From positions 84,198,001 through 84,262,000 of the forward strand of contig NC_086097.1 in the NCBI RefSeq assembly GCF_963921235.1: 64,000 bases of DNA. Reading direction: 5' to 3'. Shown here in pieces: positions 4,461 to 63,050 of the stretch; the first letter of the stretch is position 1; the number at the start of each line of letters is the position of its first letter. The notes under the pieces were generated by a model. That model saw only the letters and a list, made by a program, of their open reading frames with translations, did not search any database and was not told the DNA's origin. The translations under genes were made by a program, and so were the position numbers. Source of the DNA: Mobula hypostoma. Lineage: Eukaryota.

Positions 4461-4924
4461 GCATACCCACAGTGTAGGTATTGCAGAGTCCTTAAGCAAC
4501 AGATTAAGATCCCACAAGCAACAAGGAAGGAGTAAGATTACTGGATCTTCTTTTAGTGAAATCAGTTGAGAGCAAGATATCGATGTAGAGAATTCCTCCA
4601 AATCTTCTGCATCGAGCTGAGGCCATCTCTTGCAAAACGCAGCCTGTGCAGTACAGCGGTAGAATCAGGCTAGAACACGTGCAAAGGGCCTTTGAGCATA
4701 AACCCAGTTCCTTCTGATTCAGAGCTGAATGAGCTCAAAATAAGAGTAATATAGCCTAACTATCTGGCTTGTCATTTAGTGCTAACTTCAAGGTGCCCAG
4801 TGGCGATCCATGAAATGGTGCCATGAACAGGTTCACAGGGACTTGCTAGCAAGGCCAGCATTTATTGTCCATTCCTAACCGCACCCTGACATAACTGGTT
4901 TACTGGGACTTTGCAGTGAGCAAA

Positions 4925-5140
4925 ATTAAAACAGGGTGTTGAAAGCACACAGCAGGTCAGGCAGCATTTGTGGGAAGAGAAACAGTTAGCGCTCCAGGTG
5001 TTAAACGCTTTGGCAGAGCAAACAAGTTGGTTTTCCGTTACAGAGAATGTGTTTCTTCTTCCACAGATTCTGCCTGACCTGTTGAGTGTTTCCAGCATTC
5101 CCAGTGTTTATTTCAAATTTCCAGTGCCTGCAGTTTTTAA
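4925..5140. mobile_element. Inverted pair of decayed Penelope-like termini
   Basis: CAGCAGGTCAGGCAGCATTTGTGGGAAGAGAAAC is complementary to GTTTCTTCTTCCACAGATTCTGCCTGACCTGTTG about 60 bp downstream. Confidence 0.65.
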
Positions 5141-13609: not shown

Positions 13610-14220
13610 TGATCAACCCCACTTTTCCCTCTCTCCTGCTCCTTCTCATCCTCCTGTCCTCCTATTTTAGTCCACTTTCCCATCTTCCACACAACCCCCT
13701 TCATCCATCTTCCTCCCTTGCCACCCCTTGGCTCCATTTACCAACTTCACACACACACATATTTCCCTCATCTGATTCCGACTGCCTTTCCACTCTTACC
13801 TCCTTTACTTACCCGAATCCAAGTCTGGTAGCATTTTGTGTTTCTGCTTCTTTCTCCTTAGAGGCTGTCTCTTATCTTCACACACTTCCCATCCACCTTG
13901 CCCCATCTTTGGCTTCCCTTTTTCCCTCTCTCCGTCTGCCTCCATTTATCACTCACCTGCTTTACAGTCTTCCTCCTCCATTCCTTCTCCTCTCTGCTAC
14001 CTGGCACTACCTGCCTGTCATCCTACACCCCTCCTCAGTCCACCAATCACCTTGGAATCATTTCTTGCTGCTCTCCTTGTCCTCTCTAAGCTGCCCCTCT
14101 CGCTCCTCCACTCTCCGTATGGCAGCAGCGTTCCAACCTGAAACGTCGGCAATTTCTTTCCTCCTATAGATGTAGCATGTCCTGCTGAGCTCCTCCAGCA
14201 CAACATTTGTTGCTCCATTT
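13610..14220 (+). mobile_element. Decayed Penelope-like 3' terminus
   Basis: A long pyrimidine-rich tract ends in CCTGAAACGTCGGC...TAGATGTAGCATGTCCTGCTGAGCTCCTCCAGCA, homologous to 26610-26680. Confidence 0.6.
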
Positions 14221-16522: not shown

Positions 16523-18863
16523 TGGCATCTGTTAGTCTTGCGAGACCATGGATCTGCTCCTGGAAAGTCTTGCTTCAGTCTGTGTTAGAGCAGCGTCTGT
16601 TGTGGCTGTAGAGGCCCACACGGGAGTGACAGAATCGGCTGCAGTGACTGCATTTGAAGGCTCTGACATCCAGTGTTGTCTTGGTGCTGTTTTTCCGACG
16701 AGTGCACTTTTCTTCAGCAGCAAGCCTCAGCTTCTCTTTTCCTCTTTTTAGACCTCTGCGTAGTTCCAGCCTCCAGCGAGAGCGATCGCTTGCAATGTCC
16801 TCCCACTTCTCGACGTTCATGTTCAGTGACTTCATGTCTCTCTTGCAGACATCTTTGAAACAAAGATGGGGCTGCCCTTGTGCTCTCTTGCCGGAGGCCA
16901 GTTCCCTGTACAGCAGGTCTTTCAGGATCCTCCTATCTGACATGTGGTGTACGTGGCCCAGCTAGCGGAGACAGAGTTGTTGGAGCAGGGTGAAGAGGCT
17001 GGGTATCTGGGCGCGGGCCAGGACCTCATTGTTGGTGACTCGGTCAACCCACTTGATGTCCAGGATGCTTCTCAGGCTGAGAAGGTGGAAGGCATTGAGA
17101 CGCTGCTCTTCTCTGTAGTAGAGGCTCCAGGTCTCGCTGCCGTAAAGCAGTGTGCTGAGGACGCAGGCCCTGTAGACTGCAACCTTGGTGTGCGTCATCA
17201 GCTTTCTGTTCTCCGAGACTCTCTTTGTCAGCCTGGCGAATGTTGAGGCTGCTCGTCTGATCTGTCTGTTGATCTCAGGGTCAAGGGAGATGCTGTCCGT
17301 GATGTTGGAGCCAAGGTATGTAAACTAGTGAACTACCTCCAGCTCGTAGTTGTTGATGGTAATGGCAGGGGGTTGCTCAACGCCTTGGTCCAACATGTTG
17401 GTCTTCTTCAGGCTGATGGTCAAGCTGAAGTCCTGGCAGGCTCTTGAGAAGCTGTCCATGAGGCGTTGCAGTTGCTCTTCAGAGTGTGTTGCCAGTGCCG
17501 CGTCATCTGCAAACAACATGTCCCTGATGAGTACTTCATGAACCTTGGTTTTTGCCCTCAGACGGGACAGACTGAACAGCCTCCCGTCCAATCTGGTGTG
17601 GAGGTAGACACCATCAGTTGATGTTCCCAAGGCGTGCTTCAGCATGAATGTGAAGAAGATGCCAAACAGGGTGGGGGCAAGCACACAGCCCTGCTTCACA
17701 CTGCTGCAGATGTTGAAGGCCTCCGAAGAAGAGCCGTCGAACTGAACGACGCCCTTCATGTCTGTGTGGAATGACTGAACTATCCTGAGGAGCCTCGGGG
17801 GACAATCAATCCTGGTGAGGATTTTGAACAGGCCGTCTCTGCTCACAAGGTCGAAGGCCTTCGTGAGGTCAATGAAAGCGACGTAGAGTGGTTGTCTTTG
17901 CTCTCTGCATTTCTCTTGTAGCTGTCGAAGGGAGAAGATCAAGTCGATTGTGGAGCATTCTGACCTGAAACTGCACTGAGACTCGGGATATACCCTTTCG
18001 GCTATTTTCTGCAGTCTGTTCAGGACCACACGGGCGAAGACCTTCCCAATGATGCTCAGCAAGGAGATTCCCCTGAAGTTGCTACAGTCGCTTCTGTCCC
18101 CTTTGTTCTCATATATGGTTACAATGTTGCAGTCTCTCATGTCTTGCGGCACTGCTCCCTCTGTCCAGCACTGGCACAGCAGTTCGTGCAGGTGGTTTAG
18201 CAGGACACCCTTTGCACACTTGATGGCCTCTGGTGGAATGCCATCCAATCCTGGTGCCTTCCCAGTGGGCAGGCTGTCGATGGCTTTACTCAGCTCTTCG
18301 ATAGTCGGCAATGCATCCAATTCCTCCCTGACAGGCAGGCATTCCACGGTGTCTAGCGCACTGTCCGAGATGCTGTTTTCTCGAGAGAAGAGTTCAGAGT
18401 AATGCTCCACCCATCTCTCCATCTGCTTGCCTTTGTCATTGATGGTCTCACCTGTTATGGTTTTCAATGGTGCTGTCTTACTCTGGGTTGGCCCAATGGC
18501 TTTCTTGATCCCCTCGTACACGCCATGGATGTTGCCTGTGTCAAATGATGACTGAATGCTTTCACATAGTTGTAGCTAGTAGTCATTTGCACAGCGTCTG
18601 GCTGTTCCCTGAGCCTTGCTTCTTGCTATCTTTAGCACTTGCAGTGTTGCCTGGGTGGGGTGGCGTTTGTGCTCTAGTAGTGCAACACGCTTTACCTCAA
18701 TGACGGTGGTGAGCTTACTTGAGCTCGCTTCAAACCAGTCCTGTGTCTTGCCCCGTTTCTTCCCAAAGGCCTTGAGTGCAGTGCTGTGGATAGTGTCCCT
18801 GAGAGAGTCCCAGCTCTGCTAAGCATCTCCTTCTGGTGGGTCTGCAAGGAGAGCATCCTTCAG
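16523..18863 (-). mobile_element. RTE-clade LINE, 5'-truncated and relatively young
   Basis: 398-aa RT ORF at 17325-18521 (KAPGLDGIP, FRGISLLS, FIDLTKAFD, VKQGCVLAPTLF, LFADD). It continues past in-frame stops to a C-terminal CSHCSRFCHSRVGLYSH zinc finger. Confidence 0.95.
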
Positions 18864-25165: not shown

Positions 25166-26160
25166 AGTGCTCTGCGCTTACTACCAGTATCGTGCACACA
25201 GCCGATTGAAATACCACAAACCTCACCCCCCACTGTTCGTGTTTGTAATTTTGTTTTCTCTTTGAATTTTCCCATAGAATGCAAAATGAAAAAAAGAAGC
25301 AGTTGACCGTCTGCTATGACTCAGTTGGTCACTCTGTGGTACTGAGCCCAAATGGAACAGAAAGATTCCATTCTGTTGTTAGGGACGTCGGCCTGTGCAA
25401 TAAGACGCAGGGTAGTGAAGTAACTTGGCTGTTGGAGCCAAGGACTCGACTGCTGCTGTTATTGGGGAAAATATTCAACACCTTTTGGAATGAGAGGGAG
25501 GGAATAAATGTCAAAAAGACTAAAAATACTAACAAACAGGAGGGAAGAAAAGATTGAGGTGTTTAGTCTTCTCTCTCTCCTTCTTATTCCTCACATACAT
25601 CAGTGGTTATATCATATCAAAGGGACTGTTATGTGTGCAAATTGATTGTTACATTTTCAATGAAGCTTGGGAGCAAGTTGGGGCCATTAATTACAAAAGA
25701 AGCCATAAGCATTTATTAGAAATATATGTGAAACAGATTTCACAGGGTGAGAAGTGGGAAATTGGCATCAGGCATTAAAAGATTGAGTAAGAACCTTTGA
25801 ATACATTATAGTGACTACTGAAAATCAAAACTGCATGTTGATTTGGCCATGAGGAAAAAATACTTCAGATATTTAACCCTTAATTTGCCATAGTTAACAA
25901 TACGTAGTTGAGTTTTTTGAAGGTTGCGTTTATGATTTTGATACTTAATGCAGTTTGAATTAAGATCCTTGAGCCACTAACTAGACTGGTGTCACTTTGA
26001 AAGCTGCTGCTCATTACATCTTTCCTTTTAATTTATTAATTTTGTTTGAGGGAATCTAAGTGTCACTGGTAGGCTGAACATTTATTGTCCAATGTTAGCA
26101 ACACACACACAAGGCGCTGGTGAACGCAGCAGGCCTGGCAACATCTATAGGAAGAGGTAC

Positions 26161-26196
26161 AGTCGACGTTTCAGGCTGAGACCCTTCATCAGGACT
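26161..26196 (-). ncRNA. Minimal hammerhead ribozyme motif (PLE-type)
   Basis: The reverse complement is AGUC-CUGAUGA-A-GGGU-CUCA-GCCU-GAAA-CG-UC-GACU: stem I, conserved core, stem II, and palindromic ACGU in place of stem III. Confidence 0.7.
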
Positions 26197-26590
26197 AACT
26201 GAAAGTAGAGATTGTAAGAGATTTGAAAGTGGGAGGGGGAGGGGGAGGGGGAGATCCAAAATGATAGGAGAAGACAGGAGGGGGAGGGATAGAGCCAAGA
26301 GCTGGAAAAAGGGATACGAGGCTGGAGAAGGGAGAGGATCATGGGACGAGAGGCCTATGCAGAAAGAAAGTGGGGGGGGGGACCCAGAGGATGGGCAAGG
26401 AGTTATAGTGAGAGGGACAGAGGGAGAGAAAAGAGAGAAAAAAAGGGAAAAGAAAAATAAATTAAAAAATAAGGGATGGGGTATGAAGGGGAGGTGGGGC
26501 ATTAACGGAAATTAGAGAAGTCAATGTTAGCATTAACGGAAGCCTCTTTCCCTCCTACTTTCAAATCTCTTACTATCTCTTCTTTCAGTT

Positions 26591-26626
26591 AGTCCTGACG
26601 AAGGGTCTCGGCCCGAAACGTCGACT
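26591..26626 (+). ncRNA. Minimal hammerhead ribozyme motif (PLE-type)
   Basis: AGUC-CUGACGA-A-GGGU-CUCG-GCCC-GAAA-CG-UC-GACU, with predicted cleavage after C26622. Confidence 0.75.
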
Positions 26627-28450
26627 GTACCTCTTCCTATAGATGCTGTCTGGCCTGCTGCGTTCACCACCATTTTTTGTGTGTGTTGCTTGAATTTCCA
26701 GCATCTGCAGATTTCCTCATGTCTGAAGTTGTCCAATGTTAACTGCCTTTGAGAAAGTGGTGTTCTTTTTCTGGTGAAGGATGGGGACGTTCCAGGATTT
26801 AGACTCAGAAAAAAGAACGATAGCAACTTATTTGCAAATCAGGATAATGTAATGAGTATTTCTGTAACTGAAACAGACTTACTTTAAAATTCAGGAAAAT
26901 TGTCAAATATTATTAATCTGGAACAGGTATCTATATTGTGATGGAGGTTACTGTTGGTGAATTCCTAATTATCTTCAAGAAATGGCTTTGCTTCTAGATT
27001 TGACTATTTGAGGTCAATGCCCATTCTGGGTCCTGGGTGCATTTTGGACTCATATTCAAATATGCAGGGGCTCCTTGGGTGATGAAAGACTTGCCTTATT
27101 GAAATCTCTCTCAAACATTTTAAAACATTATTCTTGGTTAGTAATAATAATAATGCTCATTGTATTTATTGAATATTGGATATTCAATTAGTTTAATTAT
27201 GGTGATTATTCAACTAAATTAAAGAATTACAGCAAGTGTACGTAGAGCGATATGATATGGGCTACTCTAGAGAAAGGATGCTTCTGACTTACAGGGAAAT
27301 TGGCTTATGGACAGGTCTCAGGAACAAATCCATTTAATAATCCATGATTGGCCTGTAGTAAATTGTCCTCAATCTGAGATACTGCTTAAGAAGAATCAAT
27401 ACTTTAGAAGTACAGGGGAAATATTGAGTGGTAGTTCAATACTGGGGTATAATGCCTTACATTGGTGCAACAGCCATTCATTTTATAGCTGGCATGTTAG
27501 CAGAGGAGAAGCACTTCACTTAATCATTTCTCTTTACAAAATATTTACCAGAATATGATGACGAATAATGCTCAAAGTCAACAGCTTGTTTCCAGAATTC
27601 AAAGGGACTCTTCCCTTGTGATTGGGAAATACTCTAAACAATAAACAGAAGAAAAACCAAAATATAGTGAATGCTTAAAACCTGATGGAAGCTCATTAAA
27701 CCTAATGATTCCCTTTCTCTCTCCATTCTATGTAATGGTAGGCAGTAAAAATGTAATCGTGTAATCATGTATCAACGGTCTGCCTGAATGGCATGCAAAA
27801 CAAAGATTTTCACTCTATCTCCATACATGTGACACCATTATTACACATGGATTGTAAAGCATTTCCAGTGCGATCTACCAATAAGAAAACTGGATCAAAA
27901 GCAAAATATCACAGTTGCTGGTAATCTGAAATGATAGGTAGAAGTTTCTGTAAATGCTGGACAGATCAGGCAGCATCTCTGGAGAGAGGAGAAAGATAAA
28001 GTTTCAAGCCGATGTATTAGAGCAATAAACTGGAGCTCATTTCATAACAAAAATAAGTAGGAGGAAAGAAAAGATTGGCACTTGCGCTGTACTTGTGGAT
28101 GAGCTGTAGCGGTGGGACGTTTCGGGACAGTGTCACGGGTCACGGGGAAGGGCACTTGAGCGGTCTCAGGATTATGTCCCCCCCCCCTTGTGAATGTGGA
28201 TAGATGAAGTAAAAGTCAAATTTACTGTCATATTCATAAGTATATGCCTGTTCAGGTGCAAGCAGAAAAATTACTTGCAGCAGCATCACGGGCACACAGA
28301 CCTTCACAAGAAAAACATAAGCATCAGTTACATAAGAAAGAACACAAATACAACAAAAAAAAACTAATTTTGAAGTTTGCAAAGTAATCCTGGTGTTGCT
28401 ATACAGAGGTAGAGATGAGGGTTGTGCAGGTTAGTTCCAGCTGCTCGGAC

Positions 28451-51580: not shown

Positions 51581-51679
51581 TACTTCTACAAGACCGTATA
51601 TGTCCTGATGAAGGGACTCGGCCCAAAACATTGACTATTTATTTCCATAAATGCTGCTTGACCTGCTGAGTTTACCTAT

Positions 51680-52457
51680 TCATTTATTGAAATACAGCAT
51701 GCAATAGGCCCTTCTGGACCTTCGATTTAGTGCAGATTAGGCCCTCCTGGACTGATACAGTATGGAATAGGCCCATTTGAACCGATACAGTTTGGAATTG
51801 GCCCTTCCAGACCAATACAGCATGGAATAGGCCCCTCTAGACTGAAACAGCATGGAATAGGCCCTTCCAGACTGATGCAGCATGAAATAGGCCCTTCTAG
51901 ACTGATACAGTTTGGAATAGGCCCTTCCAGACCAATACAGCATGGAATAGGCCCTTCCAGACCAAAACAGCATGGAATAGGCCCTTCCAGACCAATACAG
52001 CATGGAGTAGGCCCTTCCAGACCGATACAGTGTGGGAATGGCCCTTCCAGAACAATACAGCATGGATAGGCCCTTCCAGAACAATACAGCATGGATAGGC
52101 CCTTCCAGACCAATATAGCATGGAATAGGCCTTTCCAGAGTGATAGATTGTGGAATAGGCCCTTCCGGACTAATATAGTGCAGTCTGCGGAATAGGCCCT
52201 TCCAGTCTGATACAACATGGAATAGGCTCTTCTGGACCGATACAGCAAGGAATAGGCCCTTCTGGACCTTCTGGCCCTTCTGGTACACTGCCCAGTAATC
52301 CCTTGATTTAACCCTATCCTAATCACAGGACAATTTACAATGACCAATTAACCTACCAGATGGTATCTCTTTGGACTGTGGAAGAAAACCAGAGCACCTG
52401 GAGGAAACCCAAACAGTCACGGGAAGAGCGTGCTAACTCCTTCCAGACAGCGGTGGG
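51680..52457 (-). mobile_element. tRNA-type SINE whose 3' tail is expanded into a minisatellite, inserted in a Penelope-like terminus
   Basis: The SINE body is at 52280-52457. The host terminus is 51600-51675 (CCTGATGAAGGG...CTGCTGAG) and resumes at 52458 (TTCCTCCAGCATTTTGTGTGTG). Confidence 0.7.
51692..52270. repeat. 30-bp minisatellite, about 19 copies
   Basis: Consensus ATACAGCATGGAATAGGCCCTTCCAGACCA, arranged head-to-tail with no spacers. Confidence 0.95.
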
Positions 52458-53089
52458 TTCCTCCAGCATTTTGTGTGTGCTGCTCTGGATTTCCAGCATC
52501 TGCAGAATCCCTGATGTTTATATTGAGTTCAGTCATCTGTGTTTGTCCAAGGGGATTAGAGGACATTGAATACACTGGGAAAATGAGCAGGTCTCTTTGT
52601 TAATTCACTCTTAAGTACAGTGTAACAGTAAATTTGCTGATTGGTTGCAACATGTAGATTATTTTGAGAAACTGGTTCCGTGCCTCAATTGTGCTTCTTT
52701 GGGAAAATATGTCCTTGCTCAGTTGATTCATTCTGATGGAATGACTCCATGTAACCCAGTCCTTTGCCTTTCTCCCTCTTCTCTTCACCACTACCTCCCA
52801 CCCCCACACCCCACTCCTTACACAAAGTGACCGATTCTGCTGTGGCATGCCTTCCCTGGCACCATCTGGCAGGAAGGCATTTCGGGTCAGCGTTGGGACA
52901 CAGGGAAGGCTTGGCTTGTTCATGCTCTCTTGTTGGGTCCTGGCCTCCCATTTGGCAAGGAGTCCATACGAGCAGGAGAGGTCAGTGCCACAAGCACGCA
53001 AAGCCCACATACAGCTGGGGCTGTGGCAACTGCAGGGCAGCACTGGAACAAACCCTTAGCATTGAGTTGGGCTTTAGCAGCTCCCTTTT

Positions 53090-60004: not shown

Positions 60005-61045
60005 TCCAAATCAGATTTACTATCCCCGATACATGACATGAAGTTCGTTGGTTTGCAGCAGCAGTGCAGTGCAAATTTATAAAAATCTGAAAATTACCGA
60101 AGTAAACAGTGCCAAGAAGGGGAATGGCAAGTATTGACCATGGGTTCATTGACTCTAATGGCGGATGGGAAGAAACTGGTCTGGTATCACTGAGTGAGGG
60201 TTCTCAGATTCCTGTACCACCTCCTCGATGGCAGGAATAAGAAGAAAGCCTGCCCTGGATAGGGAGCGTCCTAAATGATGGATGCTGACAGCACCTCTTG
60301 AAGATGTTCTCAATGATAGGAGAAGTCGTAGTCCCTTGTGATCCTGTGTCTCAAGAGGCTCCGTATCAGGCTATGATGCAACTAGTTAGAATGCTCCCAA
60401 CCCTACATCTGTAGAAATTTGCAAGTGTCTTTGGTTACGTACCAAATCTCCTCACACTCTTAATGAAATAGAGATACTGGAATGCTGTATTTCTGATTGA
60501 ATTGATGTGCTGGGCCCAAGGCAGATCCTCTGCAGTGTTGACACTCGTGAACTCAAAGTTGCTCATTGACTGCTGTCCACTCGATAAAGACTGGTGTGTG
60601 TTCTTCAGACTCCCCTTTCCCGAAGTCCACAATTAGTTCCTTGATCTTGCTGACATTGAATGTGAGGTTGGTGTTGCGACTCCACTCAGCCAGCTGATCT
60701 CTCACTAGGTAAATCTCTCATCGCCATCTCGGGTTCTACCAATAACAGTGGTATCATCAGTGCATTTATAGATGGTGTTTGAACTGTTCTTAGCTGCACA
60801 GTCATGAGTGTAGAGAGAGCAGTGCAGTGAGCTAAGCACACATCCTTGAGGTGCACAGTGTTGATTGTCAGTGAGGAAGAAATATTGTTATCGACCCTCA
60901 TTGACTGTGATCTCTCACAGAGGCAGTCAAGGATCCAGTTGCAAAGGGAGGTTCTGAGGGCTGGGTTTTGAAGCTTGTTGATTAGTACTGTGGGAATGAT
61001 GGTGTTGAACGCTAAACTGTAATCGATAAACATAACCTGATAGTC
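60005..61045 (-). mobile_element. Rex1/Babar-type LINE RT and 3' fragment
   Basis: MFIDYSLAFNTIIPTVLINKLQN..LCNWILD..ISSSLTINT, with a 3' region shared with the other copies. Confidence 0.9.
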
Positions 61046-61178
61046 ATTTATACGCACTCCATCACTGTGAAATGTCACCCTTCAATCAAGAAATATACAA
61101 TCACTCTGATTTATATTTATACGCACTCCATCACTGTGAAATGTCACCCTTCAATCAAGAAATATACAATCACTCTGA
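61046..61178. repeat. Tandem duplication with a 69-bp period
   Basis: ATTTATACGCACTCCATCACTGTGAAATGTCACCCTTCAATCAAGAAATATACAATCACTCTGA starts at both 61046 and 61115. Confidence 0.95.
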
Positions 61179-62899: not shown

Positions 62900-63050
62900 A
62901 TACAATTCAGCTGAAAATAGTACAAATGCTCAGCAGGTCAGCCAGCATCCATGGAAAGAGAAACAGAGTTCGCATTCACATTTCAAGTGTTAATTCTTTC
63001 CACAAATGTCTGTATGATTTATTGAGAGCTTCTAATATTTTCTGTTTTGC
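62900..63050. mobile_element. Inverted pair of decayed Penelope-like termini
   Basis: CTCAGCAGGTCAGCCAGCATCCATGGAAAGAGAAAC is followed by the loosely complementary TCTTTCCACAAATGTCTG...TTGAG. Confidence 0.5.

Follow-up and report, generated by a model that had tools for sequence, protein, structure and literature searches.

Minimal hammerhead ribozymes (min-HHRs) occur in the pLTRs of metazoan Penelope-like elements (PLEs; Cervera and De la Pena 2014, PMC4209133). Integrated units of EN+ PLEs have been described as carrying an inverted 5'-truncated copy, a one-sided tail of 30-40 bp and a target-site duplication (TSD) (PMC8557442, PMC3846280). The protein of the Poseidon element of the anole Anolis carolinensis (PAc), which belongs to the Penelope/Poseidon clade and whose ORF starts inside the hammerhead, nicks and extends both strands in vitro; two reverse transcription start sites define its tail, a dimer is predicted and the uncut RNA is the template (Frangieh et al. 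2024, PMC11167929). A third related system is provided by the non-LTR retrozymes, tandems of about 300 nt with a type I hammerhead in each unit, for which an origin in PLE pLTRs and a spread through circular RNA have been suggested (PMC7229834, bioRxiv 10.64898/2026.07.22.740005). We analysed a stretch of 64 kb from Mobula hypostoma (hereafter the window) that contains two hammerhead motifs, together with the family to which they belong.

Both the sequence and the folds confirm the preliminary description of two intact hammerheads, one on each strand, in which all core bases, stems I and II, the ACGU palindrome and an extra A are present. The plus motif reads AGUC-CUGACGA-A-GGGU-CUCG-GCCC-GAAA-CG-UC-GACU and the minus motif AGUC-CUGAUGA-A-GGGU-CUCA-GCCU-GAAA-CG-UC-GACU (positions, strands and predicted cut sites in Table 1). 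The two belong to the minimal type I hammerheads (PLE min-HHRs): the core CUGANGA ... GAAA ... UH is present in both, stems I (AGUC/GACU) and II (GGGU/GCC(C/U)) can form, and the residual stem III is the palindrome ACGU. The extra A after CUGANGA, to which attention had been drawn, is indeed there but is not special, being a known trait of PLE min-HHRs (PMC4209133). The motifs differ from each other at three positions, every one at a CpG, and the stem II closing pair (10.1-11.1) is G-U in the minus motif and G-C in the plus motif. A specific 28-nt pattern, allowing up to three mismatches, matched twice in the 64-kb window and never in 100 shuffles, whereas the loose CTGANGA..GAAA..TC pattern alone gave seven matches in the window against a shuffled mean of 3.2, which is not significant. 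The motifs do not stand out by folding energy (z -0.96 and -0.37). No hammerhead family was listed when the whole window was scanned against Rfam at E<=10; a poor Rfam score is expected because the motif is 36 nt long and without stem III.

Both motifs lie inside a 148-nt inverted repeat (26097-26244 and 26543-26690; 89% complementary), and this repeat is bounded by a 13-bp duplication, TTGTCCAATGTTA, in the manner of a TSD; the motifs are therefore two arms of one insertion and not independent. The pair is the ends of a single 631-bp tail-out Penelope-type insertion, both arms of which have their 3' ends facing outward (Table 1). The filler at their junction is probably an end-joining scar. 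The arms differ at 17 of 148 positions, which, with the three CpG differences within the motifs, indicates an older, decaying insertion; none of the 17 differences forms a one-strand A-to-G editing scar. The arms stand as an inverted pair and not as a tandem, so that the head-to-tail arrangement of a non-LTR retrozyme is absent. We read the locus, with a probability of about 0.8, as one old, non-coding PLE insertion in which two truncated ends stand back to back, likely through twin priming, and whose hammerheads are predicted to be inactive passengers.

Table 1. Features of the 64-kb window (positions within the window) and the two 310-nt arrays (genome and contig handles with coordinates)
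Feature	Position	Strand	Loci
Left TSD, 13 bp	26085..26097	+	
Minus arm: 5'-truncated PLE 3' end (last 8 ORF codons and stop, pyrimidine-rich pLTR, hammerhead), short tail-less 3' end	26098..26528	-	
Minimal type I hammerhead, G-U at 10.1-11.1, predicted cut 26165/26164	26161..26196	-	
CAG, putative 3' splice acceptor, 2 nt 5' of hammerhead stem I; use shown indirectly, at other loci	26199..26201	-	
ORF end NIDFSNFR*, C-terminus identical to that of the intact 1016-aa RT/GIY-YIG protein of full-length copies	26502..26528	-	
Junction filler, 14 nt, repeating minus-arm sequence about 20 nt away (templated insertion)	26529..26542	-	
Plus arm: short 5'-truncated pLTR with hammerhead, long 3' end	26543..26725	+	
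CAG, putative 3' splice acceptor of plus arm	26586..26588	+	
Minimal type I hammerhead, G-C at 10.1-11.1, predicted cut 26622/26623	26591..26626	+	
PLE 'tail', about 35-37 nt, on plus arm only	26691..26725	+	
Right TSD, 13 bp	26729..26741	+	
Older decayed pLTR copies, related subfamilies, 58-82% identical, broken hammerhead cores	2293-2406, 1302-1466, 4920-5023, 62931-62966	-	
Older decayed pLTR copies, related subfamilies, 58-82% identical, broken hammerhead cores	13834-14199, 51602-51689, 52454-52517	+	
30-nt tandem repeat array, about 19 units, directly after old pLTR copy	51694-52275		
416-aa open frame, strong RVT_1 match, LINE fragment	17325-18575	-	
69-nt tandem duplication, 94% identical	61037-61174		
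310-nt tandem array, 4 junctions	G000:C2:157816563-157817517		L074, L093-L096
310-nt tandem array, 2 junctions	G000:C50:58412481-58412815		L097, L098

The suggestion that the motif is abundant in this genome proved correct: a 34-nt motif pattern has 49,589 exact matches (24,774 + 24,815) in 3.48 Gb, far above the approximately 4,000 of the coelacanth and 9,000 of Xenopus (PMC4209133), and a 21-nt motif of the pLTR body has 98,424. Cartilaginous fishes are unnamed in the available text of that paper, the supplements of which may list them. Longer copies of the family extend into RT and GIY-YIG coding sequence, which supports the earlier assignment of the motifs to a Penelope-like terminus with a minimal, dimer-type hammerhead. 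The ORF start was found behind the tail in 369 copies. Among 20 ORF-start loci fetched, three (L068, L069 and L073) have two same-strand hammerheads spaced about 3.5 kb, with an unbroken ORF of 1016 aa in between; in a fourth the ORF is present and the upstream motif is missing. The ORF matches RVT_1 at residues 507-669 (E 2.9e-5) and GIY-YIG at 919-995 (E 3.7e-4), both just below the Pfam cut-offs, and its nearest named protein, from a bamboo shark, is 71% identical. The family thus has the features of an EN+ PLE, namely a single ORF with RT and C-terminal GIY-YIG, partial-tandem pLTRs, an inverted truncated copy, a tail and a TSD. The RT-EN linker, CKRNKCYTC (C-x4-C-x2-C), matches the zinc-finger-like motif C-x2-5-C-xx-C that defines the Neptune clade and is also found in Nematis (PMC8557442); the parent is a Penelope-like retrotransposon with a Neptune-type linker, its clade being placed by this linker motif and not by a tree. 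In the youngest subfamily a G-U replaces the usually conserved G10.1-C11.1 pair, and yet this subfamily is the most amplified (L068, L069, L073 and most of the genome matches listed); in this respect most young copies, among the matches listed, differ from the min-HHRs of PMC4209133. At nine of the 20 ORF-start loci (L058, L061, L062, L063, L065, L072, L074, L075 and L076) the ORF-start segment ends 250-470 nt past the motif, within a unit of 3.5 kb, and is joined to another piece of the element; these early ends suggest a preferred template-jump site or an RNA end early in the ORF.

Beyond this genome, a descriptor that required the stems and left the palindrome free matched the sense strand at 27 of 80 loci encoding relatives of 28-62% identity, the antisense strand at 3, and none of five shuffles. 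All 23 CUGANGA matches beside distant relatives have a palindromic residual stem III and 20 of them the extra A, and their stems covary, with four pair types in stem I. Within the genome, the motif is almost the same in an older subfamily (6,372 flank-anchor matches) and in a third one, although the flanks on both sides differ; a fully intact motif is present in just 10 of 30 family arms sampled regardless of the motif, some of the 30 being truncated through it. As the preliminary description had anticipated for a genuine ribozyme family, the motif is thus conserved better than its flanks, with covarying stems in relatives and three subfamilies that share it, and this pattern points to selection on the hammerhead at the level of the lineage. 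Three of the distant relatives (L214, L225 and L237) carry a U3-A8 core variant, UUGANAA, with a palindromic stem III, like Schistosoma Cercyon.

Selection on the lineage leaves the fate of the individual copy to be considered, and here the expectation of a self-cleaving RNA is weakened. When the whole insertion was folded in either direction, the sense motif was predicted to lie in a duplex of about 148 bp with the other arm, with a stem I probability of about 1e-37 or lower. It had been stated that a transcript crossing the locus in either direction carries one copy; a read-through transcript does contain one sense motif either way, but the antisense arm comes before it and the motif is predicted to be locked in this duplex. 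A transcript starting or spliced within the insertion would escape such masking, although the core of an arm on its own is predicted to mis-pair preferentially. Motifs on opposite strands cannot be dimer partners in one RNA, and the specific pattern finds no same-strand partner for either motif in the 64-kb window, its only two matches being the motifs themselves. Dimer cleavage of minimal hammerheads has reportedly been observed by Lunse et al., as covered in a review (PMC6765202). The published PLE minimal hammerheads showed no cleavage as monomers and low cleavage as dimers (PMC4209133), and that of the anole element requires the element's protein (PMC11167929). The hammerheads of the window therefore probably do not cut. 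Nor does the family seem to be copied from cut RNA. Copies starting at the cut site show no sharp excess (1,415 against 1,143 at a control 3 nt upstream, the control pattern being 3 letters longer and both counts including point mutations) and 28 of 30 sampled arms reach 5' of the cut site; the copied RNA was therefore mostly uncut, and cleaved RNA as the template was rejected.

It could nevertheless be argued that the window motifs are active, domesticated or otherwise functional ribozymes that cut host read-through RNA in both directions, as the cores and stems of both are intact, against 10 of 30 in the sampled arms. We regard this as very improbable, given the predicted sequestration in the 148-bp duplex, the lack of a same-strand partner within 64 kb, the little or no monomer activity in the literature (PMC4209133, PMC11167929) and the nature of the differences between the motifs, which are CpG changes as expected from neutral decay. 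Moreover, the 73 of 178 window ORFs that were scanned contain no host gene, one LINE-type RT being the exception to an otherwise empty result, with the proviso that short exons would escape such a scan. A different proposal is that the 631-bp hairpin moves in its own right as a non-autonomous element (MITE- or retrozyme-like), being transcribed and then re-inserted in one piece. Tail-out pairs are frequent enough to invite this idea, an adjacent inverted arm being present in 13 of 30 arms of an unbiased sample, and a few short junctions recur; however, the junctions are mostly unique, the arm lengths vary widely, and the commonest recurrent junction (-13/-1) has the tail on either side (L104 versus L085, L101, L103 and L114), which fits microhomology and not descent. 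The mobile hairpin is therefore also given very little weight. What remains to be weighed is an idea put forward for rotifer Penelopes, namely that the second arm arose by fold-back or self-priming when the cDNA, or an antisense template, bent back on itself; this depends on how the two arms of a pair relate to each other.

From the own-genome loci L001-L178, 52 unique tail-out pairs passed our filters, which asked for two arms no more than 30 nt apart that end near the pLTR end and each have at least 85% identity to a natural reference copy. These filters removed L090, L099, L107, the window's own pair and the tandem-containing loci L063 and L072, and short pairs near the start of contig C1 are over-represented in the sample (35 of the 50 listed; 1,341 short-gap pairs in all). 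The 52 pairs consisted of 48 with a long and a short end and four with a long and a cut end, with no long+long and no short+short pairs. All 48 scorable pairs thus have the tail of about 37 nt on one arm only (binomial p 4e-15 at 0.5; when arms were sampled irrespective of pairing, 17 of 30 had the long end). The window pair is likewise long+short, its short arm reaching -322 and its long arm -49, so that neither contains the other. Among the 48, the tail-less arm extended further 5' in 19 and the tailed arm in 14, and the two ended within 3 nt in 15. In the 19 pairs and in the window pair neither arm contains the other and neither can have been copied from the other, which excludes simple fold-back there; furthermore, exactly one tail is not forced by fold-back itself. 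On the other side, near-palindromic junctions are common among short pairs, in 14 of 48 pairs the short arm lies wholly within the extent of the tailed arm, and self-priming on an antisense template is favoured in PMC3846280. The arms also share alleles, agreeing at 300 of 323 diagnostic subfamily sites (93%, versus 60% in shuffled pairs), a likeness that could partly reflect gene conversion. But the arms disagree at one diagnostic site or more in 16 of the 48 pairs, and at several in a few (four in L039); some pairs therefore used two different pLTR copies. We consider fold-back unlikely as the general origin of the pairs, although less so than the two preceding alternatives.

The one-tail rule and the non-nested arms instead favour twin priming, which we infer from the geometry of the ends only and which is their simplest reading. 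Twin priming could proceed as follows: the GIY-YIG/RT protein of the element, probably as a dimer, would nick both target strands about 13-15 nt apart, and reverse transcription would be primed at both nicks on uncut element RNA, one priming at the short start site and the other at the start site about 37 nt further 3', which gives the tail. Both cDNAs would stop early, and host end-joining would fuse their ends and leave the filler. For 34 of the 52 pairs, the longest duplication without mismatch measures 13-15 bp, compared with 8-10 bp in the rotifer examples (PMC8557442, PMC3846280). Many inverted junctions in a short-gap listing (L078-L118) are no more than 15 nt away from the 5' edge of stem I, with short templated fillers or microhomology; because its pattern selected short gaps, this listing does not measure a pile-up near stem I. 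In active 3.5-kb tandem source elements, selection would keep the hammerhead, and two same-strand motifs could pair via ACGU, probably with help from the protein, to release the unit RNA, whereas the motifs of an inverted remnant would each be locked up within an extended RNA duplex.

This scheme is close to what has been described for PAc (PMC11167929): two start sites and a tail, both strands, a hammerhead just upstream and an uncut RNA template. The elements differ in that the first ATG of the long ORF lies here about 170 nt downstream of the motif start, and in the C-x4-C-x2-C linker. A coupling of the two start sites within one event, as deduced here from the pair ends, lies beyond the tests of the PAc study. 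The one-tail layout has been described qualitatively (PMC8557442, PMC3846280), while in our sample all 48 scorable pairs obey it, and non-nested arms accompany it. Our literature search, with most subscription papers outside its coverage, found no paper on Penelope twin priming with GIY-YIG.

A genome search for the ORF start joined to the front of the motif yielded six matches, all with one identical junction, at two loci (four and two; Table 1). Both are arrays with a 310-nt period and one hammerhead per unit, flanked by duplications of 12-13 bp. The units meet exactly at the CAG acceptor adjoining the ribozyme on one side and at a U12-type donor within the start of the ORF on the other. On the donor side, source copies continue past the junction position with GTATCCTTT or ATATCCTTT; this is the consensus of a U12-type donor, which base composition would produce 0.06 times in each unit (the reported U12-type 5' splice site consensus being RTATCCTTT; PMC2846911). 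On the acceptor side, a pyrimidine tract and CAG sit 2 nt 5' of stem I; for a U12 branch site (UCCUUAAC, 10-20 nt before the acceptor) there is a loose TCCCTTAC / CTCAC region, which is no clear match, and the pyrimidine tract is more U2-like. Four non-CpG-variant positions distinguish the two arrays, and their nearest GT-donor source copies, at 0 and 1 differences, are not the same one; the arrays are therefore likely to be independent events. Rolling-circle reverse transcription of a spliced circle is likely and is the simplest account of the arrays. Alternatively, they may come from a doubly spliced triple-tandem RNA, or the longer array may owe its length to later DNA duplication, for which it speaks that one CpG variant alternates between its units.

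Splicing does not appear to be the usual route. None of 30 copies sampled from the 1,413 that begin at the acceptor position has the donor-joined exon upstream, and spliced RNA as the usual template was therefore rejected. A native pLTR intron starting at an RTATCCY about 125 nt 5' of the acceptor was also rejected as unsupported: the motif is imperfect and is absent in 30 of 30 older-subfamily copies sampled, and none of five genome matches to the predicted spliced junction was real. The ORF donor was joined to no other acceptor among 10 matches. A comparison with the full-length copy listed no joints at the splice positions in contigs of eight runs, guessed to be RNA, from other organisms (the first list giving the best 15 of 383), which weighs neither for nor against splicing. 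The 310-nt arrays resemble non-LTR retrozymes in unit length, tandem arrangement and a type I hammerhead per unit, but they are joined at splice sites, whereas the retrozyme papers invoke ribozyme cleavage with a ligase or DNA-level amplification (PMC7229834, bioRxiv 10.64898/2026.07.22.740005). A spliced 310-nt circle with a single, monomer-silent ribozyme, copied round and round, would give such retrozyme-like arrays.

Taken together, we tentatively propose, at somewhat under even odds for the two parts jointly, that PLE integration is an obligately asymmetric twin priming, in which one RNP works from both nicks and from each RNA start site exactly once, and that a U12-type-spliced 310-nt circle seeds retrozyme-like arrays. 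The strict one-tail rule with non-nested arms and the 310-nt units joined at splice sites go beyond the literature searched.

By itself the window locus is ordinary, because its motif and layout are already known. The family is useful, because PLE integration has been resolved up to its first step and some 50,000-100,000 recent ends with intact source ORFs form a natural read-out of what follows. Obligate asymmetric twin priming, if true, would account jointly for the inverted arms, the one-sided tail and the 13-15-bp TSD, and the strict one-tail rule makes a sharp prediction that applies to the in vitro PLE system already established. The spliced 310-nt arrays, if confirmed, would connect PLEs to retrozymes by a concrete mechanism. 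For the host, the frequent inverted pairs imply many long RNA hairpins, and not active ribozymes, in its transcripts.
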